DNA of 25,633 bases, from positions 1 through 25,633 of the IMG/VR virus record IMGVR_UViG_2778261217_000004; one strand, written 5' to 3'. The notes under the pieces are model-generated. The model was not told the origin of the DNA, ran no database searches, and saw only the letters and a list, made by a program, of their open reading frames with translations. The stretch's first letter is position 1. The number at the start of each line of letters is the position of its first letter. The position numbers and the translations under genes were made by a program. Of the stretch, positions 2,091 through 20,165 are shown piece after piece. This DNA comes from a virus. Taxonomy: Duplodnaviria; Heunggongvirae; Uroviricota; Caudoviricetes.

Positions 2091-2167
2091 CTGATGATTT
2101 TGCTTTTCATGTTCACCGTTCCTTAAAGACGCCGTACAGCATGCTGATATGAGACAATGTTGATTCA

Positions 2168-4846: not shown

Positions 4847-4851
4847 CCGTT

Positions 4852-5148
4852 TTATACCTCTGAATCAATATCAACCTGGTGGTGAGCAATGGTTTCAACC
4901 ATGTACCGGATGTGTTCTGCCATGCGCTCCTGAAACTCAACATCGTCATCAAACGCACGGGTAATGGCTTTTTTGCTGGCCCCGCAGCGTTGCAAATGAT
5001 CGATGCAGAGTGATTCAAACAGGTGCTGTGGAAGACCTTTTTCCATGTCGTCTGCCAGTTCTGACTCTTTCTCTTCACGGGCGATCTGCTGGTAGTGACG
5101 TGCCCAGCTCAGACCCTCAAGACGATCCTGAATGTAATAAGCGTTCAT
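4852..5148 (-). CDS. gam: Gam, RecBCD inhibitor (98-aa short form)
   Basis: [11 protein letters not shown]...[10 protein letters not shown] matches lambda GamS; AGGAG RBS 7 nt upstream. Confidence 0.93.
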
Positions 5149-5223
5149 GGCTGAACTCCTGAAAATGGCTGTGAAAATATCGCCCGCGAAATGCCAGGCT
5201 GATTAGGAAAACAGGAAAGGGGA

Positions 5224-5634
5224 TTAGTGATTCAGGCCATTACCGCGTCCGTCGAAAAAAACTTCCACGAGCAAATCACGGGTATAAGTGCGCTCGATGC
5301 CGCGATGCAGATATAGCCGTCCGCGTAAATTAGCTGATGCAGTCCAGGTACCATCTTTGTGTTTGACCAGCATTCCTGGCATGACCGCACCTCGATTAAC
5401 GGTCTGCGTTCCGTAATGTTGATGAACCATAAAAACTCCTGCCCGTAAGCTGGGCTGCTGAACATATAGAGACTTCTGCGCGTATTCAGGCGGTGGATGG
5501 CCGCCGGTTGTCATAACTAAGCCGCCTCGTTGAAGCGACTGAGGTATGAGGTGTTGAGTTGATTTCAGCTGGTCACACCGACGTTCACGCGTCCGTTTCA
5601 CCCCTCGCACTCCCCGGAGCCTGCCGAAATTCAA
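5224..5634 (-). CDS. Hypothetical protein, first ORF downstream of candidate pL; start uncertain (TTG at 5634, internal ATG with AGGAG RBS at 5430)
   Basis: 136-codon open frame; N-terminal arginine-rich stretch [15 protein letters not shown]; internal start MVHQHYG preceded by AGGAG. Confidence 0.4.
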
Positions 5635-5699
5635 GCTGCGGATCTAAGCGGTCATCGCAACGGTGAATCAGGTGGTTGCCGTATCGTTGTGTTGTTGCG

Positions 5700-5790
5700 A
5701 CATGGTGATAATAGCTATTGCTATTGGTGGTATCAATACTTATTGCTATTGATTGATGTGTTTTGATATTAACTGTTTGATAGCAAAAAG
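5700..5790 (-). promoter_or_regulatory. Candidate OL/pL: leftward sigma70 promoter with operator repeats
   Basis: Minus strand TTGATA (5731-5736) - 17 nt - TATTAT (5708-5713); ATAGCAAT/ATTGCTAT motif repeated, same motif as in the cI-cro intergenic region. Confidence 0.5.
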
Positions 5791-5874
5791 AATTAATTTT
5801 GTGACTTGCATCGCATAGCGATAACTGAAGGGAGGTTGTGGTGGTTTTTCGAACGGTTTGTGTGATGAGGGGAG

Positions 5875-5906
5875 GGGACAAAAGAAAACCCGGCACGGTG
5901 GCCGGG
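5875..5906 (-). terminator. Intrinsic terminator ending the cI / ImmA-like / PIN-like transcription unit
   Basis: Minus-strand hairpin CCCGGCCACCGTGCCGGG followed by TTTTCTTTTG, 6 nt after the stop of the 5912-6424 gene. Confidence 0.65.
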
Positions 5907-5911
5907 ACGTT

Positions 5912-6424
5912 TTATTTCAAAGAAAAATTATGACTAGCGTATCTTGGAAGAAATTCATATAGTGTTAATGTCTTAACGCCGTGAGAAGCAGCAGCATCCG
6001 GGATCATTATTCTTTTTTTAGGTTTGCCACCGGATGGTTTCTCATGGGTAATAATAGTATATCCATGTGTCATCGCATGGGCTATTAAAAAAGCATCTGC
6101 TTTTTCATGGCTTGCAAAATCAAACTTTGCCTTTTCGGTAACATCTAATTTAGTTGACCAATTTATTAACTTTGCATAATTTTCTATTGAACTATGCTCA
6201 TCTTCGAAGAATGATGATGGTAACTCTTCTTTAATCCATTTACACAATGGATCATCTTTTGCACATAGTTCTTTTTTTACAGCATTAATGCTATAAATCA
6301 GACCATTCATGTGTAAAGCGAGAAGAAAATCCCAAAATATTTTGCAATAATTGAAGTTATATGCAAAGTTTTTTGCCTCTATGAAGACATTACTATCAAT
6401 TAAGAATTTTCCATTATGAATCAT
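5912..6424 (-). CDS. PIN-like (DUF4411-type) predicted nuclease
   Basis: 170 aa; N-terminal FLIDSNVFIEA resembles the first strand and Asp of PIN domains; ATGA start-stop overlap with upstream metallopeptidase gene. Confidence 0.7.
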   Translation of the reverse strand: MIHNGKFLIDSNVFIEAKNFAYNFNYCKIFWDFLLALHMNGLIYSINAVKKELCAKDDPLCKWIKEELPSSFFEDEHSSIENYAKLINWSTKLDVTEKAKFDFASHEKADAFLIAHAMTHGYTIITHEKPSGGKPKKRIMIPDAAASHGVKTLTLYEFLPRYASHNFSLK

Positions 6425-7560
6425 AGAGATTCTCGTTTTTTATAAAATTCAACAACTGTATCTGCTTTTACATTTAGCAGTACGCCTGCTTCCCTTAATG
6501 GTAATTGTTGAGACATTGCTTTGGAAATTATTATATTCGTAAGTTTTGGACTGTTACGAACAGGTAATGTGTTAAAGAAAGAACCACCATTAGATTCTTT
6601 TTTGGGCTTATTGTAAGCTTGATCTTTAATTATCTCCAAAGTGTTTCTTTCTATCAAATCTAATTGTAACGCTTTGATTGCACAAGCGAAATCACTAACC
6701 TTAAATAACTTAGAAACCTCTTTTACCCGATAATAATTATTATCGCTGGATGCATTAAGCCAGAAAGATTTGAAGAGATTATCAGGCATTAAGATTTCAG
6801 CAGCAACTTTATTACAAAAAGATTCTATGTTTTTTTCTGTGTCCCACCCAGAGACTCCATCGACTCCAAGCCAAAGATGAGCCACCTCATGAAATAATGT
6901 AAATACCTGCGCAGATAACGCGTCCGAGCTATTTACAAAAATGATCGGAGCAACGCTATCAGATATACAGAAACCACGAAACTCTCGCGTGTCAAGTTTT
7001 CTTTTATTATTATTACCCACAACACCATTCTTGAAAACTAATACGCCAGTGTCTTCTATTAGTTTTGCCACTTTAGAAAAATAGCTCTCAAAAGTGACAT
7101 TTTTTATCTCTTTTTGTATATCAAAATGTATTGTGTTTGCTATGTCTGTAGCAACAACCTTATAATTTAATTTTCTATTAAATTTAAATTTACCAATAAA
7201 ATCGAGTGGATCATCATTACCATTTTCTCTTAAATAGTCTTTGTACCACTCAAGTTTATATTCTATATCATAGTAAACATCAAAAAAATCTTTTCCTAAC
7301 TCACGGCTATTTATAGCTTGCCTTAAGTCAGGGATCTTGGGTTTGGCTGGAGTTGGTGGCGTTTCAAGAAATAAAAAACCGAAAGGGATTCCTCCAATTT
7401 TTGCCAGTTTTTCTGCTGCGGATTTACTTACCACTCCGTTAAGAAATTTATTAATCTTTTTGGGCATGACTTGGTCAGCAAGAGTTTCGATAGAAACTCC
7501 TTGAGAATTTGCTATCCAATCAATCATCTTCCTAGACAATTGAAATTCAACCGCTGCCAT
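6421..7560 (-). CDS. HTH-containing ImmA/IrrE-family zinc metallopeptidase (COG2856/DUF955-like)
   Basis: 379 aa; N-terminal HTH-like segment; HExxH motif HEVAHLWLG; AGGTGA RBS. Confidence 0.75.
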   Translation of the reverse strand: MAAVEFQLSRKMIDWIANSQGVSIETLADQVMPKKINKFLNGVVSKSAAEKLAKIGGIPFGFLFLETPPTPAKPKIPDLRQAINSRELGKDFFDVYYDIEYKLEWYKDYLRENGNDDPLDFIGKFKFNRKLNYKVVATDIANTIHFDIQKEIKNVTFESYFSKVAKLIEDTGVLVFKNGVVGNNNKRKLDTREFRGFCISDSVAPIIFVNSSDALSAQVFTLFHEVAHLWLGVDGVSGWDTEKNIESFCNKVAAEILMPDNLFKSFWLNASSDNNYYRVKEVSKLFKVSDFACAIKALQLDLIERNTLEIIKDQAYNKPKKESNGGSFFNTLPVRNSPKLTNIIISKAMSQQLPLREAGVLLNVKADTVVEFYKKRESL

Positions 7561-7689
7561 GTTATCACCTAGTTAAAAAAAACTATTATTCAACAATTAT
7601 TGTTGTGCACCTGATAGCTAACGTCAAGCCTAATTTATTGCCTTACTACAGTAAGCTGAAAAGCGAAGTGCATAATTTTGTTCTGATTT

Positions 7690-8382
7690 CTACCCATGCT
7701 TTCTATATGTCTGCGGCATGCTCCCGATGACTTTCCCGAAGATGAACACGCGGTTCATCTCGTCTTTCTCGATCGGGTCCCACGGTGAGTAGCTCTTGTT
7801 ATCAGAGATAACCAGCAGCTTATCCTTCATCATTTGCAGGCGCTTTACATGGGCGGTGTCGTCATACAGAAACGCATAGATACCATCACCGTCGAAAGAT
7901 TTAACAGTGATATCAACGAACAGAAGATCACCTGGTTCGATCGTTCCTGACATGCTGTCACCGCGTACGTTAATGATGCGGATATTTTCTGCCTTCCTGC
8001 CATCGAACATGTGACGAGCATCGTCAAACGAGTACTCAACCGAGCGTAGAACTTCTACAAACTCACGGTTGATGACTCCCGGCCCGGCACTCACTTCTAT
8101 ATCAAGAACGTCAATCTTGAAGTATTTGGGATGGTTGGCAGTAGGCTTCCCTAATTGTTGACCGTCATTTCTCATCGGGCCTATGCCTGATGAGAGCCAC
8201 TCTGTTCGAACACCCAATGCATTAGCTATTTCAACAATTTTTGTTGAGCCGCGCGCGTTGCCGCTTGTCAGTCTCCAGATTGTGGGTTGAGCTACGCCAG
8301 ACGCCTTTGCAAGAGCGCCTTGAGACATTCCAGATTGTTCCATCGCTAGGTTTAAGCGATCAGCAAGAGTTTCTTTTTTCAT
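7690..8382 (-). CDS. cI: CI-type prophage repressor (HTH plus LexA-like S24 peptidase domain)
   Basis: N-terminal HTH (MSQGALAKASGVAQPTIWRL), C-terminal S24 motifs GDSM and VKRL; start taken as ATG 8380-8382, the open frame extends to TTG at 8418. Confidence 0.9.
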   Translation of the reverse strand: MKKETLADRLNLAMEQSGMSQGALAKASGVAQPTIWRLTSGNARGSTKIVEIANALGVRTEWLSSGIGPMRNDGQQLGKPTANHPKYFKIDVLDIEVSAGPGVINREFVEVLRSVEYSFDDARHMFDGRKAENIRIINVRGDSMSGTIEPGDLLFVDITVKSFDGDGIYAFLYDDTAHVKRLQMMKDKLLVISDNKSYSPWDPIEKDEMNRVFIFGKVIGSMPQTYRKHG

Positions 8383-8492
8383 AAGTTTTAATTTATACGC
8401 TTGCGTATTGATGGTCAAAACACGTTTTGCTATTGTTATGATTAATACGCATTGCTATTATTTATTCATTGCAATACCAATAGGAATTGATA
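8383..8492. promoter_or_regulatory. OR / PRM / PR divergent regulatory region
   Basis: Perfect palindrome ATACGCTTGCGTAT (8395-8408); ATTGCTAT repeats; rightward TTGTTA (8433-8438) - 17 nt - TATTAT (8456-8461). Confidence 0.6.
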
Positions 8493-8720
8493 ATGACAAA
8501 TCAAACCATTCAACTCGCAATCAGTATTACAGGTAGTCAAAAACGACTGGCAGATCTATGCGGTGTAGCCCAACCCACTGTTTGGCGTTGGCTACACGGT
8601 GGCGGAATTGATGCCCGCTATGTAATGAAAATTGTCTCAGCCACTGGTGGAAAGATTAAACCAGCAGATATTCGTCCCGACCTCGCACCATTGTTTAACG
8701 CGAGTAATTCTGCCGCCTAA
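8493..8720 (+). CDS. cro: Cro-like HTH regulator
   Basis: Small ORF divergent from cI; HTH QKRLADLCGVAQPTVWRW; AGGA RBS 7 nt before ATG 8493; track ORF begins at TTG 8487. Confidence 0.8.
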   Translation: MTNQTIQLAISITGSQKRLADLCGVAQPTVWRWLHGGGIDARYVMKIVSATGGKIKPADIRPDLAPLFNASNSAA

Positions 8721-8744
8721 ACTGCGGCGTTAACTGATAAGGCA

Positions 8745-9290
8745 ATGACTATGCAACCACTTACATACCAACAGACTAGCGGATTTAGCCCGACTGCGGT
8801 GATAAATCGTTCTCAAACAAAACAAGCTCCAGGCCACGAAAAAATCCGTGATGCCGTCCGCGCCTGGTCGGCTGCAGATAATCAGGATGTTGTTGCCGCA
8901 CTCATTGTGAATGAGTATCGGGAGCAGGGCGGCGGCACCATCGATTTCCCTGATGATGTCAGCCGTGCACGCCAGAAGCTGTTCCGCTTCCTCGATAACA
9001 AATTCGATTCTGAAAAATACCGAAATAACGTGCGTGAACTGACCCCGGCAATTCTGGCGGTACTACCGCTGGAATATCGCGGTTACCTGGTTGAGCAGGA
9101 TAGCTTTATGGCTAGGTTGGCTGAAATGGAAAAGGAACTCAGTGAGGCAAAACAGGCTGTCATTCTCAACGCACCACGCCACCAGAAACTGAAGGAGATG
9201 AGTGAAGGCATTGTGTCGATGTTTCGAGTGGACCCGGATCTGGCTGGTCCATTGATGGCGATGGTCACCACCATGCTGGGGGCAATATGA
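8745..9290 (+). CDS. YdaT-family protein in the cII position
   Basis: 181 aa; NEYREQGGG and LTPAILAVLPLEYR resemble Rac YdaT; directly after cro. Confidence 0.7.
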   Translation: MTMQPLTYQQTSGFSPTAVINRSQTKQAPGHEKIRDAVRAWSAADNQDVVAALIVNEYREQGGGTIDFPDDVSRARQKLFRFLDNKFDSEKYRNNVRELTPAILAVLPLEYRGYLVEQDSFMARLAEMEKELSEAKQAVILNAPRHQKLKEMSEGIVSMFRVDPDLAGPLMAMVTTMLGAI

Positions 9291-9376
9291 CAGGTTCAAA
9301 AATGGCGAAAGTCGGTCTGCGGGAACAGAACCGACTTTCAGGTGCAAATCGTAACACACTCATTGCGGGAGGAATT

Positions 9377-10306
9377 ATGGCAAACACTGCTGAGATATTC
9401 AATTTTCCAGTGCCGGATGCGGCACAAAAGGAGCCGCGCGTGGCAGATCTCGATGATGGTTATACGCGCATTGCAAATGAGTTGCTGGAAGCTGTGATGC
9501 TGGCCGGATTAACACAGCACCAGCTTCTGGTCTTCCTGGCTGTCATGCGCAAAACATATGGCTTTAATAAAAAACTGGATTGGGTGAGCAACGAGCAACT
9601 TTCCGAGTTGACCGGGATATTGCCGCACAAGTGTTCTGCTGCAAAAAGTGTTCTGGTAAAGCGTGGGATTTTTATTCAGAGCGGGCGGAATATCGGCATC
9701 AATAATGTGGTCAGTGAATGGTCAACATTACCCGAATCGGGTAAGAAAAATAAAGTTTACCTGAAAGAGGTAAATTTACCTGAATCAGGTAAGAAAAGTT
9801 TACCTAAATCAGGTAAAGGCGTTTACCCGAATCAGGTAAACACAAAAGACAAACTAACAAAAGACAATATAAAACCTTTATCGTCCGAGAATTCTGGCGA
9901 ATCCTCTGACCAGCCAGAAAACGATCTTCCTGTGGTGAAACCGGATGCTGCAATTCAGAGCGGCAGCAAGTGGGGGACAGCAGAAGACCTGACCGCCGCA
10001 GAGTGGATGTTTGACATGGTGAAGACCATCGCGCCATCAGCCAGAAAACCGAATTTTGCAGGGTGGGCTAACGATATCCGCCTGATGCGTGAACGTGATG
10101 GACGTAACCACCGCGACATGTGCGTGCTGTTCCGCTGGGCATGCCAGGACAACTTCTGGTCCGGTAACGTGCTGAGTCCGGCTAAACTCCGCGACAAGTG
10201 GACCCAGCTCGAAATCAACCGTAACAAGCAACAGGCTGGCGTGACAGCCAGAAAACCAAAACTCGACCTGACAAACACTGACTGGATTTACGGGGTGGAT
10301 TTATGA
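9377..10306 (+). CDS. O: Replication initiator O
   Basis: Homologous to lambda O (VADLDDGY..., LRKTYGWNK-like, EQVNTKDKLTKDNI); GGAGG RBS before ATG 9377; iterons inside the gene; open frame extends to 9287. Confidence 0.9.
   Translation: MANTAEIFNFPVPDAAQKEPRVADLDDGYTRIANELLEAVMLAGLTQHQLLVFLAVMRKTYGFNKKLDWVSNEQLSELTGILPHKCSAAKSVLVKRGIFIQSGRNIGINNVVSEWSTLPESGKKNKVYLKEVNLPESGKKSLPKSGKGVYPNQVNTKDKLTKDNIKPLSSENSGESSDQPENDLPVVKPDAAIQSGSKWGTAEDLTAAEWMFDMVKTIAPSARKPNFAGWANDIRLMRERDGRNHRDMCVLFRWACQDNFWSGNVLSPAKLRDKWTQLEINRNKQQAGVTARKPKLDLTNTDWIYGVDL
9729..9840. repeat. Replication origin iterons (five copies) within O
   Basis: Five ~18-19 bp repeats of TTACCTGAATCAGGTAA-type sequence at 9729-9746, 9756-9774, 9776-9794, 9800-9818, 9822-9840, followed by an A-rich stretch 9841-9875. 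Confidence 0.85.
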
Positions 10307-11004
10307 AAAACATCGCCGCACAGATGGTTAACTTTGACCGTGAGCAGATGCGTCGGATCGCCAACAACATGCCGGAACAGTACGACGAAAAGCCGCAGGT
10401 ACAGCAGGTAGCGCAGATCATCAACGGTGTGTTCAGCCAGTTACTGGCAACTTTCCCGGCGAGCCTGGCTAACCGTGACCAGAATGAACTGAACGAAATC
10501 CGCCGCCAGTGGGTTCTGGCTTTCCGGGAAAACGGGATCACCACAATGGAACAGGTTAACGCAGGAATGCGCGTAGCCCGTCGGCAGAATCGACCATTCC
10601 TGCCATCACCCGGGCAGTTTGTCGCCTGGTGCCGGGAAGAAGCATCCGTTAACGCCGGGCTGCCAAACGTCAGCGAGCTGGTTGATATGGTTTACGAGTA
10701 TTGCCGGAAGCGCGGGCTGTATCCGGATGCAGAGTCTTATCCGTGGAAATCAAACGCGCACTACTGGCTGGTTACCAACCTGTATCAGAACATGCGGGCC
10801 AATGCGCTGACTGACGCGGAATTACGGCGCAAGGCTGCCGATGAACTGACCTGTATGACAGCGCGAATTAACCGTGGTGAGACGATACCTGAACCAGTAA
10901 AACAACTTCCTGTTATGGGCGGTAGACCTCTAAATCGTGCACAGGCTCTGGCGAAGATCGCAGAAATTAAAGCTAAGTTCGGACTGAAAGGAGCAAGTGT
11001 ATGA
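10303..11004 (+). CDS. P: Replication protein P (helicase loader)
   Basis: 233 aa, near-identical to lambda P; ATGA overlap with O stop. Confidence 0.97.
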   Translation: MKNIAAQMVNFDREQMRRIANNMPEQYDEKPQVQQVAQIINGVFSQLLATFPASLANRDQNELNEIRRQWVLAFRENGITTMEQVNAGMRVARRQNRPFLPSPGQFVAWCREEASVNAGLPNVSELVDMVYEYCRKRGLYPDAESYPWKSNAHYWLVTNLYQNMRANALTDAELRRKAADELTCMTARINRGETIPEPVKQLPVMGGRPLNRAQALAKIAEIKAKFGLKGASV

Positions 11005-11303
11005 CGGGCAAAGAGGCAATTATTCATTACCTGGGGACTCATAAGAAATTCTGTGCGCAGGACGTTGCCGCGGTAACAGGCGCAACGGTAACCAGCATAA
11101 ATCAGGCTGCGGCTAAAATGGCGCGGGCAGGAATCCTGGTCGTTGATGGTAAGGTCTGGCGAACGGTGTATTATCGGTTCGCTACCAGAGAAGAACGGGA
11201 AGGAAAGGTGAGCACGAATTTGATTTTTAAGGAGTGTCGCCAGAGTGCCGCGATGAAACGGGTATTGAGGGTATATAAAAGAACATCAATGGGTACACAA
11301 TGA
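11001..11303 (+). CDS. ren: Ren protein
   Basis: MTGKEAIIHYLGTH...VTSINQAAAKMARAG... matches lambda Ren; overlaps P stop. Confidence 0.9.
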   Translation: MTGKEAIIHYLGTHKKFCAQDVAAVTGATVTSINQAAAKMARAGILVVDGKVWRTVYYRFATREEREGKVSTNLIFKECRQSAAMKRVLRVYKRTSMGTQ

Positions 11304-11370
11304 TGAAACAGGTGAGTTGAGTTCAAACTGTAGTACAATTCTCTCCAGTTTGAACAGGAAAGAATATGCT

Positions 11371-11703
11371 ATGAACCCTTATATTTATCTTGGTGGTGCA
11401 ATACTTGCAGAGGTCATTGGTACAACCTTAATGAAGTTTTCAGAAGGTTTTACACGATTATGGCCATCTGTTGGTACAATTATTTGTTATTGTGCATCAT
11501 TCTGGTTATTAGCTCAGACGCTGGCTTATATTCCTACAGGGATTGCTTATGCTATCTGGTCAGGAGTCGGTATTGTCCTGATTAGTTTACTGTCATGGGG
11601 ATTTTTCGGCCAACGGCTGGACCTGCCAGCCATTATAGGCATGATGTTGATTTGTGCCGGTGTGTTGGTTATTAATTTATTGTCACGAAGCACACCACAT
11701 TAA
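11371..11703 (+). CDS. emrE: SMR-family multidrug efflux transporter EmrE
   Basis: 110 aa from MNPYIYLGGAILAEVIGTTLMKFSEGF..., matching E. coli EmrE; track ORF starts further upstream at 11317. Confidence 0.93.
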   Translation: MNPYIYLGGAILAEVIGTTLMKFSEGFTRLWPSVGTIICYCASFWLLAQTLAYIPTGIAYAIWSGVGIVLISLLSWGFFGQRLDLPAIIGMMLICAGVLVINLLSRSTPH

Positions 11704-11733
11704 AATAATTTGTTTCTAAACGACTAAAATATG

Positions 11734-11770
11734 GAGGCTCTTATATTTATATGAGCCTCGTTTTATGCTT
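11734..11770 (+). terminator. Intrinsic terminator after emrE
   Basis: Hairpin GAGGCTC-(12 nt loop)-GAGCCTC followed by GTTTTATGCTTTTTG. Confidence 0.6.
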
Positions 11771-11957
11771 TTTGTTAATGTCTTTATTTTTTATGTATTC
11801 TTTTGTGCTTTCAAGATTATGGCGTAAGAAAATTGCAATACGATTATTGTTGTATATTCAAGATAATGTGACCTTAATTGTCTTTTTAAATAAAAATTAA
11901 ACAAAAATTATATCCCACCACTAAGGTTTATAAAAGCATACGTTAGCAGGTGTCACC

Positions 11958-13484
11958 ATGAAAAAAGCCATAGCATATATGCGATTTTCATCACCAGGTC
12001 AGATGTCTGGTGACTCATTAAACCGACAGAGAAGACTTATTGCTGAATGGTTAAAGGTAAATAGTGATTATTATCTTGATACCATAACATATGAAGATTT
12101 AGGATTAAGTGCATTCAAAGGAAAGCATGCACAATCAGGAGCTTTTTCGGAATTTTTAGATGCTATAGAGCATGGTTATATATTGCCAGGAACTACATTG
12201 TTAGTTGAAAGTCTGGACAGACTTTCAAGAGAAAAAGTCGGTGAAGCGATTGAACGTCTGAAATTGATTTTGAATCACGGTATTGATGTTATAACTCTTT
12301 GCGACAATACAGTCTATAATATTGACTCTTTGAATGAGCCATATTCATTAATAAAAGCCATACTTATAGCACAAAGGGCAAATGAAGAAAGCGAGATAAA
12401 GTCAAGTCGGGTTAAATTATCATGGAAGAAAAAACGGCAGGATGCACTGGAATCAGGTACGATTATGACGGCGTCTTGTCCGAGATGGCTCTCCTTAGAT
12501 GACAAAAGAACGGCTTTTGTTCCAGACCCCGACAGGGTGAAAACTATTGAGCTAATTTTTAAACTCAGGATGGAAAGGCGCTCATTGAATGCAATAGCCA
12601 AGTATTTAAATGATCATGCTGTAAAGAATTTCTCAGGAAAAGAAAGTGCATGGGGACCTTCTGTAATTGAAAAATTATTAGCGAATAAAGCTCTGATAGG
12701 TATATGCGTACCTTCATATCGTGCAAGAGGGAAAGGGATAAGTGAAATCGCTGGCTATTATCCCAGAGTCATATCAGATGATTTGTTTTACGCTGTACAG
12801 GAAATTCGGTTGGCACCTTTTGGTATTAGCAATAGTAGCAAGAATCCTATGCTAATAAATCTACTTCGAACAGTTATGAAGTGTGAGGCTTGTGGTAATA
12901 CCATGATTGTTCATGCGGTATCTGGAAGTTTGCATGGCTATTATGTTTGTCCAATGAGAAGATTACATCGATGTGACAGGCCATCAATAAAAAGAGATTT
13001 GGTTGATTATAATATCATTAATGAATTGCTTTTTAATTGTAGCAAAATTCAACCAGTTGAAAACAAGAAAGATGCTAATGAAACTTTAGAGTTAAAAATT
13101 ATTGAGCTTCAGATGAAAATTAATAATTTAATCGTTGCATTGTCTGTCGCGCCTGAAGTTACCGCTATAGCAGAGAAAATAAGACTATTAGATAAGGAAT
13201 TACGAAGGGCTTCGGTATCATTGAAAACTTTGAAGAGTAAAGGTGTAAATTCATTCAGTGATTTTTATGCTATTGACTTAACCAGTAAAAATGGACGAGA
13301 GTTATGCCGTACACTTGCCTATAAAACATTCGAAAAAATCATAATTAATACGGATAATAAAACCTGTGATATCTATTTTATGAATGGCATTGTTTTTAAA
13401 CACTATCCTTTAATGAAAGTAATATCCGCCCAGCAGGCGATAAGTGCTCTCAAATATATGGTTGATGGTGAGGTTTATTTTTGA
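11958..13484 (+). CDS. ybcK: Serine recombinase (resolvase/invertase-type catalytic domain, large C-terminal extension)
   Basis: 508 aa; N-terminal AIAYMRFSSPGQ catalytic-serine region; AT-rich gene; AGGTG RBS. Confidence 0.8.
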   Translation: MKKAIAYMRFSSPGQMSGDSLNRQRRLIAEWLKVNSDYYLDTITYEDLGLSAFKGKHAQSGAFSEFLDAIEHGYILPGTTLLVESLDRLSREKVGEAIERLKLILNHGIDVITLCDNTVYNIDSLNEPYSLIKAILIAQRANEESEIKSSRVKLSWKKKRQDALESGTIMTASCPRWLSLDDKRTAFVPDPDRVKTIELIFKLRMERRSLNAIAKYLNDHAVKNFSGKESAWGPSVIEKLLANKALIGICVPSYRARGKGISEIAGYYPRVISDDLFYAVQEIRLAPFGISNSSKNPMLINLLRTVMKCEACGNTMIVHAVSGSLHGYYVCPMRRLHRCDRPSIKRDLVDYNIINELLFNCSKIQPVENKKDANETLELKIIELQMKINNLIVALSVAPEVTAIAEKIRLLDKELRRASVSLKTLKSKGVNSFSDFYAIDLTSKNGRELCRTLAYKTFEKIIINTDNKTCDIYFMNGIVFKHYPLMKVISAQQAISALKYMVDGEVYF

Positions 13485-14005
13485 GTAATAATCACTTTTT
13501 CAACCGTGCTATGGTATGAAAGTAAAGTAACTACTATGATATTAACTATCTTGAACGAAGCGCCCTGAGCTATGGTTTTGCTATAGGGACTGCCAATGGG
13601 GGCTGGCATTCTCGCTCCAGTAGTTCAATAATACTCAATCACAAAACAATTCACTGATAACAAACTTTGCACACTTGCTTGGTTATGGCGAGCAAGTGAT
13701 GTGATGTTAACCGTCTGCCAGAACATTACTTCACTTCTTCAAGTGGCGGAACATTGCGAATCCGGTAACTTTGCTTCCATCGAGCAAGAATATCCCTAGG
13801 TACTCAACAGGGTGCAGGTCAACGTGAATCGGTCATGACACGACACCGATTTTGCGGAATGTTTCGAAGGTAAACTATTGGATGCCTCTATCAGCAACAA
13901 CACAGCAAGATCAGAAGTGATGGACGACACGTTCAGAGCAATGATTCAGCGCGTCGAGGATGCGAAAGGAAAACTGTAACCACAGAGAAAGAGCTTGTTT
14001 CATGT

Positions 14006-14278
14006 GTGAAGGAGCGCAGTAACAGGACATTTGAAGCCCGTTACTACGTTCAAAACAGCAATCTACAAACTGTGCTCGAACAGGGAATGGTGATAAGCAG
14101 AGACGCGTTAGAAAACTATGAAGCTGGAAATCTGATATCCGACATCCTGCCACAGCAATCACCTGAAGATGCGGTACTAAAAATGGTTGACTGTCTCAAG
14201 CGCCTTGGAGCTGCTACCGAAGCTAATTTTAAAAACAATAAGGATGAAAATGTGGATCCCGAAAACTACGTTGTGTAA
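14006..14278 (+). CDS. Hypothetical small protein (possibly a gene remnant)
   Basis: 90-codon frame with a GTG start and no convincing RBS; overlaps an antisense ORF. Confidence 0.25.
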   Translation: MKERSNRTFEARYYVQNSNLQTVLEQGMVISRDALENYEAGNLISDILPQQSPEDAVLKMVDCLKRLGAATEANFKNNKDENVDPENYVV

Positions 14279-14422
14279 CGTAAGGTTAAATGAGGCTATT
14301 AAATGTTGTGATATCAATAGATATATATAGAGTAATTTTCGTTATAATTAACTGTTCTGGGATATCGGACTATGATGGTCTCCAGAATTGAGAATATTTA
14401 TCAACTTAATGATAGAGGGACT

Positions 14423-14689
14423 ATGAAAATTTACAGCCTTGGTGAAGAGACAATCAATAGCATTATTGAAGAAGATAAAAAATTGTCTGAGCAGGTGCAG
14501 ATTATTGAAGATTATATCGTTATCAATGTTGCTTATGAATACAACATCCCGCTTAGTACATGTTCAACACATCAGCAAATTTTGAACTGGGTGTGGCACT
14601 TAACTGAAAAAACATGGATGACACAAAATGTTACTCGTCGCTTCATTGAAGTAGCTTGTGGATATCACAAGCTAGACTATCGCCAATGA
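14423..14689 (+). CDS. Hypothetical protein (88 aa)
   Basis: ATG at 14423 preceded by GAGGG RBS; track ORF starts at 14372; no family recognised. Confidence 0.45.
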   Translation: MKIYSLGEETINSIIEEDKKLSEQVQIIEDYIVINVAYEYNIPLSTCSTHQQILNWVWHLTEKTWMTQNVTRRFIEVACGYHKLDYRQ

Positions 14690-14879
14690 TATTCAATTTT
14701 TGATTTTTTAGTATCAACCTTCCATAATAATGTCACCGGAGCTTGAACAACTCCGGTGACTTCTGCGCATTTAAGGGGACTTAAATGCGACCACAATCTG
14801 AACTCCTTACCTTGTCACAGATGCAGAAATGCACCTGCGATGTCTTGCATCCAGCGTTTGATCTCTGCGGAGGTGAAGC

Positions 14880-15335
14880 GTGAACCTCCCACAAGATGGC
14901 ATCAAATTACATCGCGGTAACTTCACCGCTGTCGGTCAGCAGATCCAGACTTATCTGGAAGACGGCAAATGCTTTCGCATGGTGCTTAAACCGTGGCGCG
15001 AGAGACGCAGTCTTTCCCAGAATGCACTCAGCCACATGTGGTACAGCGAAATCAGCGAGTACCTCATCAGCAGGGGGAAAACGTTCGCTACTGCAGTATG
15101 GGTAAAAGATGCACTCAAACACACATACCTCGGTTATGAAACCAAGGACTTGGTTGATGTCGTAACCGGCGAAATCACTACTATCCAGTCGTTACGCCAT
15201 ACCTCCGATCTTGATACCGGAGAGATGTATGTCTTCCTGTGTAAGGTTGAAGCCTGGGCGATGAATATTGGCTGCCACCTGACTATTCCGCAGAGCTGCG
15301 AGTTCCAGCTGCTGCGCGACAAGCAGGAGGCGTAA
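14880..15335 (+). CDS. ybcN: NinB-family recombination protein
   Basis: 151 aa; [12 protein letters not shown] resembles the NinB core; GGAGG RBS before GTG start; position in nin region. Confidence 0.8.
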
Positions 15336-15505
15336 TGGCTACACCGCTTATTCGTGTCATGAACGGGCACATTTACAGAGTACCAAATCGTCGTAAGCGT
15401 AAACCTGAGCTGAAGCCTTCCGAAATACCAACACTGCTCGGATATACCGCCAGCCTGGTTGATAAAAAATGGTTGCGACTGGCAGCAAGGAGGAATCATG
15501 GCTGA
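15335..15505 (+). CDS. ninE: NinE-family small protein
   Basis: 56-aa ORF (not in ORF track) [56 protein letters not shown]; TAATG overlap with ninB stop. Confidence 0.65.
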   Translation: MATPLIRVMNGHIYRVPNRRKRKPELKPSEIPTLLGYTASLVDKKWLRLAARRNHG

Positions 15506-15788
15506 TTTGAGAAAAGCAGCGCGTGGTCGGGAATGCCAGGTAAGAATCATTGGCGTATGTAATGGCAACCCTGAAACGTCTGTACTGGCACATATCCGGC
15601 TGGCTGGATTGTGCGGCACCGGTATTAAACCGCCAGACCTTATTGCCACCATTGCCTGTTCTGCCTGTCACGACGAAATCGACCGCCGCACGCATTTTGT
15701 CGATGCTGAGTACGCAAAAGAATGCGCGCTGGAAGGTATGGCGAGAACGCAGGTTATCTGGCTGAAAGAGGGGGTAATCAAGGCGTGA
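15498..15788 (+). CDS. ybcO: YbcO-family phage nuclease (DUF1364-like)
   Basis: 96 aa from [17 protein letters not shown]...; AGGAGG RBS; overlaps ninE stop. Confidence 0.85.
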
Positions 15789-16147
15789 ATACTTACCACA
15801 TCACACTACCCTGGCCGCCGAGCAATAACCGCTACTACCGGCATAATCGCGGGCGCACGCACATCAGCGCAGAAGGGCAGGCATACCGTGATAACGTCGC
15901 CCGAATCATTAAAGGCTCAATGCTGGATATCGGCCTGGCTATTCCTGTGAAAATCCGCATAGAGTGCCACATGCCGGATCGCCGTCGCCGTGACCTGGAT
16001 AATCTGCAAAAAGCCGCTTTTGACGCACTCACTAAAGCAGGTTTCTGGCTTGATGATGAGCTGGTCGTTGATTACCGCGTTGTGAAGATGCCTGTTACCA
16101 AAGGTGGGAAGCTGGAACTGACCATCACTGAACTGGGAGATGAATGA
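15785..16147 (+). CDS. rusA: Holliday junction resolvase RusA
   Basis: 120 aa from GTG ([26 protein letters not shown]...), matching RusA; GTGA overlap with ybcO stop. Confidence 0.93.
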
Positions 16148-16284
16148 TGTTTGAGTCTTATATGGCAGAACGTCTTCGCCGCCGCTGGGTGCGCCTGCGC
16201 TTATATCGTTTCCCCGGTTCTGTTTTGACCGATTACCGAATACTGAAGAATTACGCCAAAACCCTGACAGGAGCAGGAGTATGA
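16144..16284 (+). CDS. ylcG: YlcG-family small protein
   Basis: 46-aa ORF (not in track) [46 protein letters not shown]; ATGA overlap with rusA stop. Confidence 0.7.
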
Positions 16285-16369
16285 AGTCAGAGATAACAAT
16301 CAACTAATACTGTTTTGTTGATTTTTGCTTGTAATTGGCGTTCTGGTCTGATTTTTGTGGAGTAAGTTG

Positions 16370-16753
16370 ATGCGTGATATTCAGATGGTTCTTGAGCGTT
16401 GGGGAGCGTGGGCGGCTAATAATCATGAAGATGTGACCTGGTCGTCCATTGCCGCCGGTTTTAAGGGATTAATTCCTTCAAAAGTAAAATCTCGCCCGCA
16501 ATGTTGTGACGATGACGCGATGATCATTTGCGGGTGCATGGCCCGTCTGAAAAAGAACAACAGCGATTTGCACGATTTATTAGTAGATTATTATGTAGTC
16601 GGTATGACATTCATGTCACTGGCAGGTAAGCATTGCTGCTCTGATGGTTATATCGGGAAAAGGTTACAGAAGGCTGAGGGTATAATTGAAGGGATGTTAA
16701 TGGCATTAGATATCCGGTTAGAGATGGATGTCGTTGTTAATAACTCTAATTAA
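16370..16753 (+). CDS. quuD: Late-gene antiterminator Q (phage 82 type)
   Basis: 127 aa from [21 protein letters not shown]...; GGAG RBS 7 nt upstream; position after the nin region. Confidence 0.9.
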
Positions 16754-16942
16754 TATGCCAATTGTTTACTAAAAGTTATTAAAAACGGGGCGTTGCAACG
16801 CCCCCAAAAATAAAGGGTAATATATAACAGAAGGTTTATATAGTTAGAAGCAAGGTTGTGCTCCTAAAGGAAGTGGCTTGAGGGAGCCACTTATATGTTG
16901 GGGAGGCAAAGCCTCCCGCAACATATCTTTTTCGTAATCAGA
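16754..16942. promoter_or_regulatory. Late promoter / terminator region between Q and the convergent porin gene
   Basis: Three hairpins: GGGGCGTTGCAACGCCCC (16787-16804, T-rich on minus strand), GTGGCTTGAGGGAGCCAC (16872-16889), GGGAGGCAAAGCCTCCC (16901-16917). Confidence 0.5.
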
Positions 16943-18040
16943 TTAGAACTGGTAAACCAGACCTACAGCAACGATGTCATCAGTGCTTACACCGAGTGCT
17001 TTAGTGAAGTCATTTTTGTCAAGCAGGTTGATTTTGTAATCAACGAAAGTAGACATATTTTTGTTGAAGTAATAGGTTGCACCTACATCAACATATTTGA
17101 CTAAGTCCTGATCGCCCCATACTCCAAGATCCTTACCTTTAGATTGCAGGTAAGCAACGGACGGACGCAGACCGAAATCGAACTGATATTGTGCAACAGC
17201 TTCGAAGTTTTGAGCTTTATTAGCAACGAAGTGATCAGCAAATACAGTCATATTCTGGGTTTCAGAATAGGTAGTGGCCAGGTAAATGTTGTTAGCGTCA
17301 TATTTCAGACCTGCGGCCCAAACTTCTGCATTTTTACCGGAAGCAAATACTTCAGGAAGAACTTTCCCTGCATTAACTTGAGTGTCGGTACGATCAGATT
17401 TCGCATAAGTTGCACCGATACCGAATCCTTCGTATTCATAGGTAGCAGAGAAACCGAAGCCATCACCGTTACCTTCAGTGTAGTTATCGAAATCGCTACG
17501 ATCGTTTTTGCCTTGGTACTGAGCAGCAAAGTTCAGACCATCAACCAGACCAAAGAAGTCGTTGTTACGATAGGTTGCAACACCAGTGGTGCGACCAGTC
17601 ATGAACACATCTGTTTGAGTCCAGGTATCGCCACCGAATTCTGGCAGAACGTCAGTCCACGCACCGATGTCGTATGCTACACCGTAGTTACGGCCGTAAT
17701 CGATTGAGCCGTAGTCACCGAATTTCAGGCCTGCAAATGCAAGACGGGTTTTGTCTTTGGAGGAACCTTGAGATTCAGCGCGGTTGCCTTTGAATTCATA
17801 TTCCCACTGACCGAAACCAGTCAGCTGATCGTTGATTTGGGTTTCGCCTTTGAAGCCCAGACGAACATAAGTAGTATCACCATCATCTGCATCGTTAGAG
17901 GAAAAGTAGTGCTTGGCATTAACTTTCCCGTACAGATCCAGCTTGTTACTGTCTTTATTATAAATTTCAGCTGCCTGAGCAGACATCGCCATCAGTACTG
18001 ATGCAGCTACAGCAGAAATTGCCACTGTTAATTTTTTCAT
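16943..18040 (-). CDS. nmpC: Outer-membrane porin (OmpC/NmpC family), intact
   Basis: 365 aa with signal peptide [23 protein letters not shown] and C-terminal VGLVYQF; uninterrupted reading frame. Confidence 0.93.
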
Positions 18041-18628
18041 CGTGAGCCCTTTTTTTTGAACTATTATTAAAAAATGATGTCACTGCGAGATAAATATTCA
18101 TCTAATCAATGTGATTATTTCAAGATGTAAGTTTTAGTTTCTCATTTAATTTGTGAAGTAGATCTCTATTTTTATCTTAACTTTTTCTATCAAAACCTAT
18201 TTATGGCTCTTATTTGAACAAAAATAAACCTATTAGCTAATTTATATTAATGGCTGTTATTTATGTGGGTTCTATAATTTGACGGTTTAATTTAAACCAA
18301 CTAAAAATAACGCAGGAAATTATTTATTGGTTATTTGTTGAGGTTTTCTTATGTATTTGTGGTGGTGTTTTGAACACTCGGTAGCATTCTCATAAATATC
18401 ATTCAGTGGTTTACGTACGTAAAAAATTGGTTATGCTGTTAAGAGTGGTTACTTCGTCACACAGCTTAAACCCGCCGTCGAGCTGGTTTTTCCATTTTTT
18501 GAGTCTCGATATTAGCTGATAACTCAATACCTAAGTTATTCACTGACTCCGAGTCTGTTACGTTTCTGCTTTTTTGCGATACGTTGTATTCCCTCAATTT
18601 ACACCCGCTTTGTCTGCGAGGTGGGGTT

Positions 18629-18844
18629 ATGAAATCCATGGATAAGTTAACAACGGGTGTCGCCTATGGCACCTCAGCAGGTAGTGCCGGTTACTGGTTT
18701 TTACAGCTGCTCGATAAAGTCACGCCCTCACAGTGGGCAGCAATAGGTGTGCTGGGTAGCCTGGTATTTGGCCTGCTGACGTACCTGACAAACCTTTATT
18801 TCAAGATTAAAGAAGATAAGCGCAAGGCTGCGAGAGGTGAATAA
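18629..18844 (+). CDS. essD: Class II holin (phage 21 S-like), dual start MKSMDK
   Basis: 71 aa [26 protein letters not shown]...; GAGGTGGGG RBS. Confidence 0.9.
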
Positions 18845-19224
18845 TGCCTCCATCATTACGAAAAGCCGTTGCTGCTGCTATTGGTGGCGGAGCAATTGCT
18901 ATAGCATCAGTGTTAATCACTGGCCCAAGTGGTAACGATGGTCTGGAAGGTGTCAGCTACATACCATACAAAGATATTGTTGGTGTATGGACTGTATGTC
19001 ACGGGCATACAGGAAAAGACATCATGCTCGGTAAAACGTATACCCACTCACTGTCCGGCACTGCTGCAAGCGCAGGTGCACACGCACATACTGTCGGTAT
19101 TGGTGCTCATACGCACTCGGTTGCGATTGGCTCACATGGACACACCATCACCGTTAACGCTGCTGGTAACGCGGAAAACACCGTCAAAAACATCGCATTT
19201 AACTATATTGTGAGGCTTGCATAA
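18844..19224 (+). pseudogene. rrrD: In-frame fusion: 5' 67 codons of SAR-endolysin joined to the 3' end of a tail-fibre gene
   Basis: Residues 1-67 match the phage 21/DLP12 SAR endolysin N-terminus up to GKTYT; residues 68-126 ([37 protein letters not shown]...[11 protein letters not shown]) are a tail-fibre C-terminus; junction near 19044/19045. Confidence 0.8.
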
Positions 19225-19808
19225 TGGCATTCAGAATGAGTGAACAACCACGGACCATAAAAATTTATAATCTGCTGGCCGGAACTAATGAATTTATTGG
19301 TGAAGGTGACGCATATATTCCGCCTCATACAGGTCTGCCAGCAAACAGTACCGATATTGCACCACCAGATATTCCGGCTGGCTTTGTGGCTGTTTTCAAC
19401 AGTGATGAGGCATCGTGGCATCTCGTTGAAGACCATCGGGGTAAAACCGTCTATGACGTGGCTTCCGGCGACGCGTTATTTATTTCTGAACTCGGCTCAT
19501 TACCGGAAAATGTCACCTGGTTATCCCCGGAAGGGGAGTTTCAGAAGTGGAACGGCACAACCTGGGTGAAAGATGCAGAAGCAGAAAAACTGTTCCGGAT
19601 CCGGGAGGCGGAAGAAACAAAAAACAGCCTGATGCGTGTAGCCAGTGAGCATATTGCGCCACTTCAGGATGCTGCAGATCTGGAAATCGCAACGGAGGAA
19701 GAAACCTCGTTGCTTGAAGCCTGGAAGAAGTATCGGGTGTTGCTGAATCGTGTTGATACATCAACTGCACCTGATATTGAGTGGCCTGCAATCCCTGTTA
19801 TGGAATAA
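19224..19808 (+). CDS. tfa: Tail fibre assembly protein (Tfa family)
   Basis: 194 aa [31 protein letters not shown]..., typical lambdoid Tfa; TAATG overlap with upstream stop. Confidence 0.9.
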
Positions 19809-20165
19809 TAGTTTTGTGATATGCCGCAGAAACGTTATATGCAATAACGTGCTGCGGTTGGCTGATGTACTTTCGAGAGTGTATTGAATAATTTCCAACC
19901 GTCATTAATTTTATTTATTTTTTGTATGAGAGGATTTGAACCTCCGAGCCTCGACACCTTATGACAACGCGATATTGCCTTGATGATCGCCATGTGCCAA
20001 AATAACCAATTGATAAATAAGTTTATTTTAATTGGTTGGAAGCAAGTCAGGTCAAATTCAGCATTCCGCTCTCTGTATCGGATAGTTAAATTTTTCTATA
20101 ACTGATAGTAATATGTTAAAACTCACACAGATAAATTATCATTGCTCAACAAGTATAATGGAGTT

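Follow-up and report, generated by a model that had tools for sequence, protein, structure and literature searches.

Lambdoid phages carry accessory genes, known as morons, in slots where variable cargo of deviant base composition lies between conserved junctions and is exchanged via the flanking homology. A promoter and a terminator of its own are part of the classical definition of a moron. Large serine recombinases, such as those of phages A118, SPbeta (SprA/YokA), phiC31 and TP901-1, combine in this order a resolvase domain, a recombinase domain and a zinc ribbon with a coiled coil. In SCCmec (Ccr), Tn4451 (TnpX) and Tn5397 (TndX), a large serine recombinase lies beside resistance-type cargo in a compact AT-rich unit, an arrangement resembling the block described here. 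The DNA invertases Gin, Pin and Hin, which act as phase-variation switches, share the serine recombinase catalytic domain, and gin in phage Mu sits after the tail-fibre and tail-fibre-assembly genes. In the DLP12-type prophage of Escherichia coli K-12, integrated at argU (PMC6379469), the genes emrE, ylcJ and ybcK follow ren. In K-12, a Rho/NusG-dependent terminator located upstream of ybcK keeps the gene from being transcribed (PMC4150792). A sabinene-tolerance phenotype has been reported for ybcK; neither recombination by YbcK nor a recombination-linked substrate or phenotype is reported in the ybcK literature found. Here, the cargo block between ren and the nin region of a related phage sequence was analyzed.

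Results

Identity and base composition of the block

The window, that is, the whole 25,633-nucleotide stretch of DNA analyzed, corresponds to a prophage inserted at icd in E. coli PapRG-06-3, with a 100% match over positions 11000-15000 and 99.97% identity over 1-19044. The RefSeq annotation of this prophage gives the order ren, emrE, ylcJ, ybcK, a P22AR fragment, two hypothetical genes and ybcN, and includes a tyrosine integrase and an excisionase of its own. Compared with K-12-like loci (L004 and L082), the order of emrE, ylcJ and ybcK after ren is the same, at 99-100% nucleotide identity, and so are the downstream nin genes ybcN, ninE, ybcO, rusA, ylcG and quuD. The differences lie in the integration site, icd rather than argU, and in the DNA following ybcK, which here comprises an antirepressor fragment, a frameshifted HK225_059-like gene and an 88-aa ORF, and in K-12-like loci ybcL-ybcM. 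The block is already known, ordinary DLP12-type cargo, composed of emrE, ylcJ, ybcK and gene debris. Its exact gene layout occurs in only 6 of 5,426 E. coli genomes.

All genes and gene remnants described below, as well as the right junction, are on the plus strand. The block (11304-14697) lies between ren (11001-11303; PHROG 142 Ren-like, 7e-42) and ybcN (14880-15335), with which the conserved nin block begins. Its GC content is 37.1%, versus 50.5% in the left flank (9287-11303) and 50.8% in the right flank (14698-16147), a deviation of the kind seen in lambdoid moron cargo. The AT-rich cargo that a sequence-only reading had placed between the replication and nin genes is thus borne out, and it looks foreign. 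GC content is uneven inside the block, being 35.2% in 11304-13559, 45.1% in 13560-14278 and 33.7% in 14279-14697. Because further AT-rich accessory patches occur in the window at about 5750-7500, 17750-18500 and 23500-25633, the block is not unique in being AT-rich accessory DNA. Consensus scans of the block for promoters and terminators gave matches at chance level, and an Rfam scan of the block returned nothing but one sub-threshold snoRNA match. The gene first named ninB is ybcN, which is NinB-like (NCBIfam PRK09741, 3.5e-82; PHROG 72 NinB/Orf, 3e-51; Pfam NinB, 2.5e-4, below cut-off); a conserved 32-aa ORF (14785-14883; 92% identity over 24 residues to HK225_060; a CDS in RefSeq) overlaps its start.

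Common junctions around an exchangeable slot

The left mosaic junction is located at about 11276, within the last ~9 codons of ren. In about 140 phage records without the module, the match to the window ends at 11276, and three cargo types part from one another at this same point in the alignment. On the right, homology resumes at 14698-14700 in nearly all phage and prophage loci, so that the earlier placing of this border at about 14700 was accurate; the exceptions are the O157-like loci L033-L038, which have more of the block in common and resume at 14522, and L061, which resumes at 14724. The right mosaic junction (14698-14760), common to phages with any cargo, comprises TTTTGATTT, a promoter-like site at 14700-14728 and a perfect hairpin with a 10-bp stem at 14732-14760. 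In the phage 82 record (X92588), -35/-10 signals and a possible regulator-binding site are annotated at this junction.

The slot holds an acyltransferase and a lipoprotein gene in PhiR30_1, small ORFs and Rha in PhiR5_1, and the defence gene PD-lambda-1 together with Rha in PhiR26_1, and among 80 viral contigs at least nine distinct arrangements occur between ybcK and position 14698. The cargo thus lies between conserved modules, and its borders are junctions common to all lambdoid phages of this type, including relatives with other cargo or none. The phages carrying the module include active ones, namely Turner, Perceval, 4A7, Lambda_4C10, 1W, 3W, D2 and the PhiR phages. Moreover, identity inside the block is a patchwork that reaches into ybcK, where identity to locus L045 falls from 99.8% in the first third of the gene to 93.9% in the last. 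Given the common junctions and this patchwork identity, homologous recombination between phages, not YbcK, explains the borders and the spread of the block.

The emrE cassette and ylcJ

The gene emrE (11371-11703) encodes a full-length SMR multidrug efflux transporter of 110 aa (Pfam PF00893 SMR, 2e-35; NCBIfam EmrE NF042984, 240.6 bits versus a curated cut-off of 226). Its sequence, MNPYIYLGGAILAE..., carries the essential membrane-embedded Glu14 (E14), in agreement with the efflux pump proposed earlier; the start is the ATG at 11371, as in RefSeq, and not the TTG at 11317 as had been proposed. emrE forms the centre of a cassette (about 11294-11709) that can stand apart from the rest of the block. 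The same cassette, with 92% identity, runs straight into ybcL-ybcM, without ylcJ-ybcK, in about 2,630 E. coli genomes; the single one examined has it beside fliE. Just upstream of the emrE ribosome-binding site is a 35-bp near-palindrome (11321-11355; inverted repeat I10; 13-nt arms, 9-nt spacer), which has hardly changed between the two emrE lineages, despite a 7.5% difference in emrE itself. Its predicted RNA fold was no better than those of shuffled sequences (z = -0.25). The following gene, ylcJ (11751-11900; GC 24.7%), encodes a hydrophobic small protein of 49 aa (Pfam PF23688 YlcJ-like, 2.4e-35; annotated as ylcJ in RefSeq).

YbcK is an intact large serine recombinase under purifying selection

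The 508-aa product of ybcK (11958-13484) is a genuine large serine recombinase, as had been proposed, with Resolvase (PF00239, 5.5e-19), Recombinase (PF07508, 2.3e-14) and Zn_ribbon_recom (PF13408, 7.9e-8) domains and a match to PHROG 95 'integrase' (4e-120). The resolvase catalytic residues R9, S11, Q15, D87, R88 and R91 are invariant in 26 YbcK homologues, as are the zinc-binding residues C309, C312, C331 and C339. YbcK thus has the catalytic Ser/Arg set, the four cysteines and the domain order, zinc ribbon and coiled coil included, of known large serine recombinases. Outside its own family, no phage integrase reaches 30% identity with it. A single-sequence search against PDB sequences gave no match, and a family profile was needed; with this profile, the serine integrases of SPbeta and A118 were matched at 1e-15 to 1e-17, the alignment to their C-terminal regions reaching residue ~471-478. 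Judged from its sequence, YbcK has everything required of a catalytically competent large serine recombinase.

About one in four complete E. coli genomes, among them that of K-12, carries ybcK, and the ylcJ-ybcK unit is found in one location type, in a median of one place per genome. All 82 copies read have an uninterrupted ORF, and dN/dS is 0.06-0.09 at dS up to 0.18, indicating that YbcK is kept by strong purifying selection, which could reflect a role other than recombination. IS1203 insertions were observed in ybcK of some O157 strains. Full-length homologues with 42-61% identity occur in other genera; in Atlantibacter and Pantoea they lie in the slot described here, and emrE is absent. 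Elsewhere, relatives of YbcK are located at prophage ends, after tail-fibre genes and as the last gene beside host DNA, like integrases, and this position makes an integrase origin of YbcK plausible. One relative adjoins a protein with a faint Shufflon_N match.

Gene debris and a conserved small gene downstream of ybcK

Homology classes switch in the 75-bp AT-rich tail after ybcK (13485-13559), with breakpoints at 13493, 13523, 13550 and 13559 in different loci; in K-12-like loci, where ybcK has 99.8% identity to that of the window, the tail is not alignable at all. Further downstream, an antirepressor gene of the Rha/P22AR type is represented by an internal fragment only, as pseudogene debris (13608-13817; 73% identity in tblastn, 1e-31; Pfam P22_AR_C, 2e-9). 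In the Rha protein of phage PhiR26_1 (202 aa), the fragment corresponds to residues ~100-169; the part for the N-terminal domain is missing, as are the final ~33 residues. It is followed by a frameshifted homologue of HK225_059 (13920-14278; 63% identity), which begins with the ATG at 13920 and extends upstream of the annotated GTG start. Compared with HK225, one nucleotide near 13970 is deleted, which shifts the frame; locus L018 has the same frameshift. The match to PHROG 1258 covers only profile positions 19-96. HK225_059 is annotated in its own record as similar to Gp43 of phage phiKO2. The stretch 13485-14005, described earlier as fragmentary, does contain no intact gene, but its content is recognizable as the antirepressor fragment and the 5' part of the frameshifted gene. 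The ORF at 14006-14278, formerly listed as an independent small gene, belongs to this frameshifted gene as well and makes up its 3' part.

The ORF at 14423-14689 is real, intact and conserved, encoding an 88-aa protein that matches PHROG 12459 (1e-36, full length) and PHROG 2559. Its homologues form 15 clusters of ~88 aa with 54-97% identity and 21 invariant residues. An AlphaFold model of the protein has a pLDDT of 88, and a search with this model returned no significant fold match. Homologues are located next to a candidate defence gene (PDC-S31) in the P2 A-Q hot spot and in a P4-like element, at its cargo end, showing that this ORF is a conserved accessory gene which other mobile elements also carry in their cargo hot spots. 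None of the block proteins matched a defence or anti-defence model in PADLOC. The anti-defence or regulatory role suggested from the sequence for the small ORFs upstream of ybcN is conjectural for the 88-aa protein. As to gene content overall, the sequence-only reading was right about emrE, the 508-aa recombinase and 14423-14689, but overlooked ylcJ and took 14006-14278 as separate.

Search for recombination sites and rearrangements

Inversion of a neighbouring segment, excision, or the remnant of an integrase from a nested element had been suggested from the sequence. The search for flanking repeats in 10500-15500 found no inverted repeats above chance around ybcK (the best is 24 nt at 75%) and no att-like direct repeats above chance flanking the block or ybcK, that is, none beyond what is expected by chance for a 5-kb AT-rich stretch. 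The att sites of serine integrases, which span about 40-50 bp, form an imperfect dyad centred on a dinucleotide and mostly adjoin the integrase gene, need share only about 2 bp, and a repeat search can miss such sites. A 13-nt direct repeat at 11219 and 14699, with one copy at the right junction, was rejected as a chance match because only TGATTT is common to other phages and there are 14 such families in 5 kb. A 15-nt inverted repeat at 12059 and 13486, flanking most of ybcK, was also rejected, as it is not conserved in K-12-like loci. In the flanks of nine YbcK homologues, no common site was seen.

All 83 of the compared E. coli-type loci with YbcK are collinear with the window and show no inverted segment, which speaks against inversion. 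A synthetic precise-excision junction had no match of ≥95% in the 5,426 E. coli genomes, so excision was not borne out either. The 'empty' emrE|ybcL junctions in these genomes are all in a paralogous island with 80-92% identity, and none reaches ≥95%. The emrE-ylcJ-ybcK-ybcL and emrE-ybcL arrays differ by 2,083 bp; instead of a deletion, this difference may reflect an insertion that YbcK made long ago, and the junction sequences favour neither. The attB, attL, attR and attP sites rebuilt from the emrE|ybcL indel had no convincing dyad symmetry, nor was any found beside ybcK.

Discussion

The block is quite probably composite moron cargo spread by phage recombination, with YbcK as a putative auxiliary recombinase. 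The accessory genes lie between ren and ybcN, in a slot for exchangeable non-essential genes, and form three parts with separate histories, namely the emrE cassette, the ylcJ-ybcK unit, and a decayed stretch with one intact small gene. Given the junctions and the patchwork identity, it is recombination among phages and prophages, homologous or illegitimate, that has put these parts together and spread them, and not YbcK. In comparison with known lambdoid moron slots, nothing essential is different here. emrE would serve the lysogen as an ordinary efflux pump. The terminator upstream of ybcK suggests that YbcK is mainly made under phage antitermination, as occurs upon infection or induction. 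Sequence and selection suggest that it may then act as an auxiliary site-specific recombinase on putative att sites. Its most likely ancestor is a serine integrase module of the kind its relatives carry at prophage ends. The ybcK gene differs from the genes of known serine integrases by its place in the early-right operon of a phage with its own tyrosine integrase.

Other explanations concern whether YbcK itself shapes the locus. That ylcJ-ybcK, or emrE-ylcJ-ybcK, is a small nested integrative element still moved by YbcK, with attL and attR sharing only the central dinucleotide, would account for the clean 2,083-bp presence/absence between otherwise collinear emrE...ybcL-ybcM arrays, for the switch of homology classes directly after the ybcK stop codon, for the position of YbcK relatives as the last prophage gene, and for the distinct composition (GC 25-36%). 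This is unlikely, however, since every empty junction is 8-15% diverged, the unit has a single location type, the rebuilt attP and attB are without convincing symmetry, and the patchwork inside ybcK fits homologous exchange. Unlike the LSR-driven cargo elements SCCmec, Tn4451 and Tn5397, moreover, emrE and ybcK are separable, each being found without the other, and neither excision nor alternative insertion sites were found in the 5,426 genomes. A broader proposal is that YbcK and its enterobacterial relatives form a distinct serine integrase lineage, which in lambdoid phages would be a second, active system beside the tyrosine integrase, expressed only under antitermination and using an att site just after the stop codon (13485-13560). 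It would provide an alternative integration or excision route, or move the 1.8-2.1-kb ylcJ-ybcK unit between prophages as a minimal LSR-only element; this proposal is doubtful.

A role for YbcK as an invertase flipping a neighbouring segment, like Gin, Pin or Hin, was suggested by its superfamily, by relatives located right after tail-fibre and tail-fibre-assembly genes in several other prophages, and by the Shufflon_N neighbour of one relative. It is exceedingly improbable and largely refuted by the missing inverted repeats and the collinear loci, and with its 508 aa and its recombinase and zinc-ribbon domains YbcK is built like an integrase, not like the ~190-aa invertases, which have a C-terminal HTH. 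It is very unlikely, too, that YbcK is a non-functional, not-yet-degraded integrase relic of a once-nested element. The surrounding pseudogene debris, the silencing of ybcK in K-12 (PMC4150792), the tyrosine integrase and excisionase already present, and the IS1203 insertions would fit a relic, but low dN/dS, intact ORFs, invariant catalytic and zinc-ligand residues, full-length homologues in other genera and carriage by phages isolated as viable viruses disfavour it. Finally, part or all of the cargo (YbcK or the 88-aa ORF) might have an anti-phage or anti-defence function, which is common for genes in this slot, as with PD-lambda-1 in PhiR26_1. The association of the 88-aa ORF with defence is by neighbourhood only, at two loci, and neither a PADLOC nor a fold match was obtained, making such a function quite unlikely.

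In summary, the block is one more example of lambdoid phages trading accessory genes, a drug efflux pump included, at fixed junctions. Such cargo is routine, and what modest value the block has lies in YbcK. If active, YbcK would provide the genome-engineering toolbox with a serine integrase that is native to E. coli and has defined att sites, and its activity would explain why phages that have a tyrosine integrase keep a second recombinase.

Structure of the AT-rich block

The GC content of the block between ren and ybcN (11304-14697) is 37.1%, compared with 50.5% for 9287-11303 and 50.8% for 14698-16147, bearing out the AT-richness noticed in the sequence-only reading. Inside the block, the composition is uneven, with 35.2% as far as 13559, 45.1% across 13560-14278, and 33.7% across 14279-14697. 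The presence of emrE is confirmed, with its start moved to the ATG at 11371, and a gene missed earlier, ylcJ, lies at 11751-11900. The proposed 508-aa serine recombinase, YbcK (gene 11958-13484), indeed carries Resolvase, Recombinase and Zn_ribbon_recom domains. The stretch 13485-14005 is fragmentary, as had been described, and contains Rha/antirepressor debris and the 5' part of a frameshifted gene. Positions 13608-13817 align at 73% identity (1e-31) with the 202-aa Rha/antirepressor of phage PhiR26_1, over roughly its residues 100-169, and also match residues 147-216 of a 249-aa protein of phage PhiR5_1; this gene is without both ends and is therefore debris. ORF 14006-14278 is 63% identical to HK225_059, annotated in its record as similar to Gp43 of phage phiKO2, and the similarity runs on upstream of the annotated GTG. 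In the DNA alignment, the gene begins with an ATG at 13920 and has lost 1 nt near 13970, and the ORF is therefore the tail of the frameshifted gene. Thus, of the two small ORFs proposed earlier, only 14423-14689 is intact. RNA-family, promoter and terminator scans of the block added nothing. Everything in the block is annotated in public records, and the cryptic prophage DLP12 of K-12 has the same emrE-ylcJ-ybcK array.

A near-palindrome of 35 bp (11321-11355) lies immediately before the ribosome-binding site of emrE. Two emrE lineages with coding regions 7.5% apart share it in almost unchanged form, which means that the region upstream of emrE is better conserved than the gene. The RNA stability of the near-palindrome is not unusual, and it may be an operator.

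The 88-aa ORF (14423-14689) covers PHROG 12459 end to end and has 15 clusters of homologues of about 88 aa, with 54-97% identity and 21 invariant residues. Its AlphaFold model is confident (pLDDT 88), with no significant match in fold searches of PDB and BFVD. The small ORFs had been suggested as anti-defence candidates, an idea that gained no support from PADLOC, whose models matched none of the block proteins. One homologue, in a P2-like prophage of Serratia ureilytica (locus L105, 2289-3580), occupies the hot spot between replication gene A and the portal gene, directly upstream of a DUF2971 protein matching the PADLOC candidate system PDC-S31 (3.8e-34), and a second homologue belongs to a small integrative element, at its cargo end. 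Sequence context places this family among the accessory genes of mobile elements.

A shared cargo slot between ren and ybcN

In about 140 phage records with ren and without the module, including SfI, Stx1a phages, BP-4795, ev243 and PhiR12, the match to the window ends at 11276, nine codons before the ren stop, which is also where two of the module-less phages part from each other. On the right side, matching restarts at 14698-14700 in nearly all loci and phages, the exceptions being the O157-like loci L033-L038 (14522) and locus L061 (14724). A TTTTGATTT motif marks the restart point; behind it come a promoter-like site and then a hairpin (14732-14760) with a perfect 10-bp stem (GTCACCGGAG...CTCCGGTGAC), which is kept in all phages compared. 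In the phage 82 record, this region is annotated as a possible regulator-binding site. Between these borders, PhiR30_1 carries an acyltransferase and an outer-membrane lipoprotein (L088, 2152-3161), PhiR5_1 small ORFs, an intact Rha and a 168-aa gene, PhiR26_1 a PD-lambda-1 defence gene and Rha (L095, 1-1391), and K-12-like prophages emrE-ylcJ-ybcK-ybcL-ybcM. Among 80 viral contigs with ybcK, at least nine arrangements are found in the interval from ybcK to 14698. Since the same junctions enclose differing cargo, the borders are those of a general cargo slot and not of this particular cargo. With such cargo, the slot behaves as a hot spot for defence and surface-modifying genes.

The slot lies in a prophage whose sequence over 11000-15000 is 100% identical to the one adjoining icd in E. 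coli PapRG-06-3 and SCU-152, and positions 1-19044 are 99.97% identical to the PapRG-06-3 prophage. In the RefSeq gene order, a tyrosine integrase, an excisionase, early-left genes, an XRE repressor, O- and P-like replication proteins and ren are followed by emrE, ylcJ, ybcK, a P22AR C-terminal fragment, two hypothetical genes, a 32-aa ORF and ybcN, and then by ninE, ybcO, rusA, ylcG, quuD, a porin and lysis genes. This gene set is common to DLP12, but the attachment site is different. Identity to the complete PapRG-06-3 prophage ends at 19044, within the lysozyme gene. Further on are a tail-fibre-assembly gene (19224-19808, Caudo_TAP), genes for McrB-like AAA_5 (20142-22124) and McrC-like (22121-23242) proteins, and a 212-bp copy of the icd 3' end (23949-24160, 92.9% identity) marking the right attachment site. 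The window prophage has no head or tail genes and is a defective prophage of ~24 kb.

Two further features were observed in its left part. The early-left operon includes an orphan DndB-like (DGQHR) gene (2168-3232, minus strand; Pfam DndB 3.8e-46, PADLOC DndB 4.3e-37) with no other dnd genes nearby. Adjoining the XRE repressor is a very AT-rich gene pair (5912-7560, minus strand; GC 0.30-0.36) encoding a 379-aa ImmA/IrrE-type metallopeptidase (PADLOC CapP-like 9.8e-15, RmrA-like) and a DUF4411 protein, which may form a regulatory or defence-associated module.

Predicted competence and genomic contexts of YbcK

YbcK matches the PHROG 'integrase' family 95 (4e-120), and 26 homologues, the most distant at 29% identity, all retain residues R9, S11, Q15, D87, R88 and R91 as well as the four zinc-ribbon cysteines. 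Although a single-sequence search of PDB gave no matches and identity to other phage integrases is below 30%, the family profile reveals its likeness to the SPbeta and A118 serine integrases (1e-15 to 1e-17). The gene is intact in all 82 copies read, and comparison of 50 distinct E. coli alleles with that of the window gives a dN/dS of 0.06-0.09 (dS 0.10-0.18). Judged by its sequence, YbcK thus has everything expected of an active large serine recombinase, and purifying selection acts on it. At least 12 phage records carry the module; they represent 11 phages (one was deposited twice), among them Turner, Perceval, 4A7, Lambda_4C10, 1W, 3W and D2.

Relatives of YbcK were examined in eleven genomic contexts. 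In three of them, E. coli, Atlantibacter and Pantoea dispersa, the gene is in the lambdoid post-replication slot. In five others, Erwinia (before lepA), Ewingella, Yersinia enterocolitica, Yersinia rohdei and a Pantoea species, it directly follows genes for tail fibres or their assembly and lies at the distal end, or close to it, of a prophage of siphovirus or myovirus type. In Erwinia (L091, 10207-10772), the Pantoea species (L108, 8325-8890) and Ewingella (L098, 9212-9845), whose prophages are otherwise unrelated, the recombinase is accompanied by a conserved 80-aa gene and a UmuD'-like gene (product beginning MGFPSPA.DY), located downstream of it in Erwinia and upstream in the other two. 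A 50%-identical homologue in Citrobacter koseri (L100, 8145-11530) is divergent to a gene for a 555-aa protein with a faint Shufflon_N match; the region also has TraD and MobA/MobL genes, so this context is plasmid- or ICE-like rather than a prophage. The contexts in the remaining two, Kluyvera and Pantoea coffeiphila, are ambiguous.

About 100 nt downstream of the Kluyvera homologue (L096, about 11670-11700), a stretch ...GGGTTCAACTCCCTCCAGCTCCACCA resembles a tmRNA 3' end (weak Rfam match, E = 0.1), with no intact tmRNA gene nearby. An ssrA-integrated element may have its distal att repeat here.

Recombinase activity versus homologous exchange

Based on the serine recombinase, the sequence-only reading had suggested inversion or excision of a neighbouring segment, or the remnant of an integrase. 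Within 5 kb, a repeat search found 14 families of direct and 14 of inverted repeats, 12-30 nt long, none of which flanks the block or ybcK in a conserved way, and no inversion was seen in the 83 YbcK-bearing E. coli-type loci compared. For excision, a synthetic emrE|ybcL junction was made from K-12-type sequence. Among 5,426 E. coli genomes, full-length matches to it occur only at 80-92% identity and represent a paralogous emrE-ybcL island; genomes matching at 95% or better match one half only, meaning that the site is occupied. Mobilisation of the ylcJ-ybcK unit by YbcK is a less likely alternative, without any supporting polymorphism. As for the remnant, low dN/dS and uniformly intact copies show that ybcK is not decaying, and the end-of-prophage position of relatives, as expected of an integration module, makes integrase ancestry of the family plausible.

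In K-12, a Rho/NusG-dependent terminator in the ybcK leader holds down ybcK transcription (PMC4150792); improved sabinene tolerance upon overexpression is the sole phenotype found in the ybcK literature read (PMC7181518). Because of the upstream Rho-dependent terminator and the place of the gene in the pR operon, YbcK would be made mainly under N-type antitermination, upon infection or induction, and might then act as an auxiliary recombinase on putative sites.

The distribution of the pieces points to homologous exchange. An emrE-like sequence is present in 3,698 of 5,426 complete E. coli genomes, and emrE-ylcJ-ybcK in only 1,399. In about 2,630 genomes, the emrE cassette (window 11294-11709), 92% identical, is joined straight to ybcL-ybcM; emrE-ybcL-ybcM lacking ylcJ-ybcK is thus found in some half of the complete E. 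coli genomes. One of them, E. coli ST131 strain 751 (L102, 6988-9239), was examined: here the three genes are part of a small, degraded lambdoid remnant that has fliE on one side and an IS200/IS605 transposase on the other, and that differs by 8-15% from the DLP12-type copy. Within E. coli, emrE therefore resides in two old locations distinct from each other. The two arrangements differ by a clean 2,083-bp segment, beginning 7 nt past the emrE stop and holding ylcJ, ybcK and about 340 bp downstream. YbcK homologues without emrE occupy the same slot of lambdoid prophages in Atlantibacter (60% identity; adjoining a cytosine methylase) and Pantoea dispersa (42%). Segment-wise identity to other loci is a patchwork: against locus L045, the identity of ybcK falls from 99.8% over the first third to 93.9% over the last, and K-12-like loci are 99.8% identical across the whole gene and unalignable from its stop codon on. 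Such a patchwork is the sequence signature of homologous recombination among lambdoid prophages, in which conserved genes including ybcK would serve as linkers. The block is therefore a mosaic in which at least three pieces assort independently of one another; they occupy a shared accessory slot and are exchanged through recombination in homologous sequence beside and within the block. The slot behaves as in classical lambdoid mosaicism.
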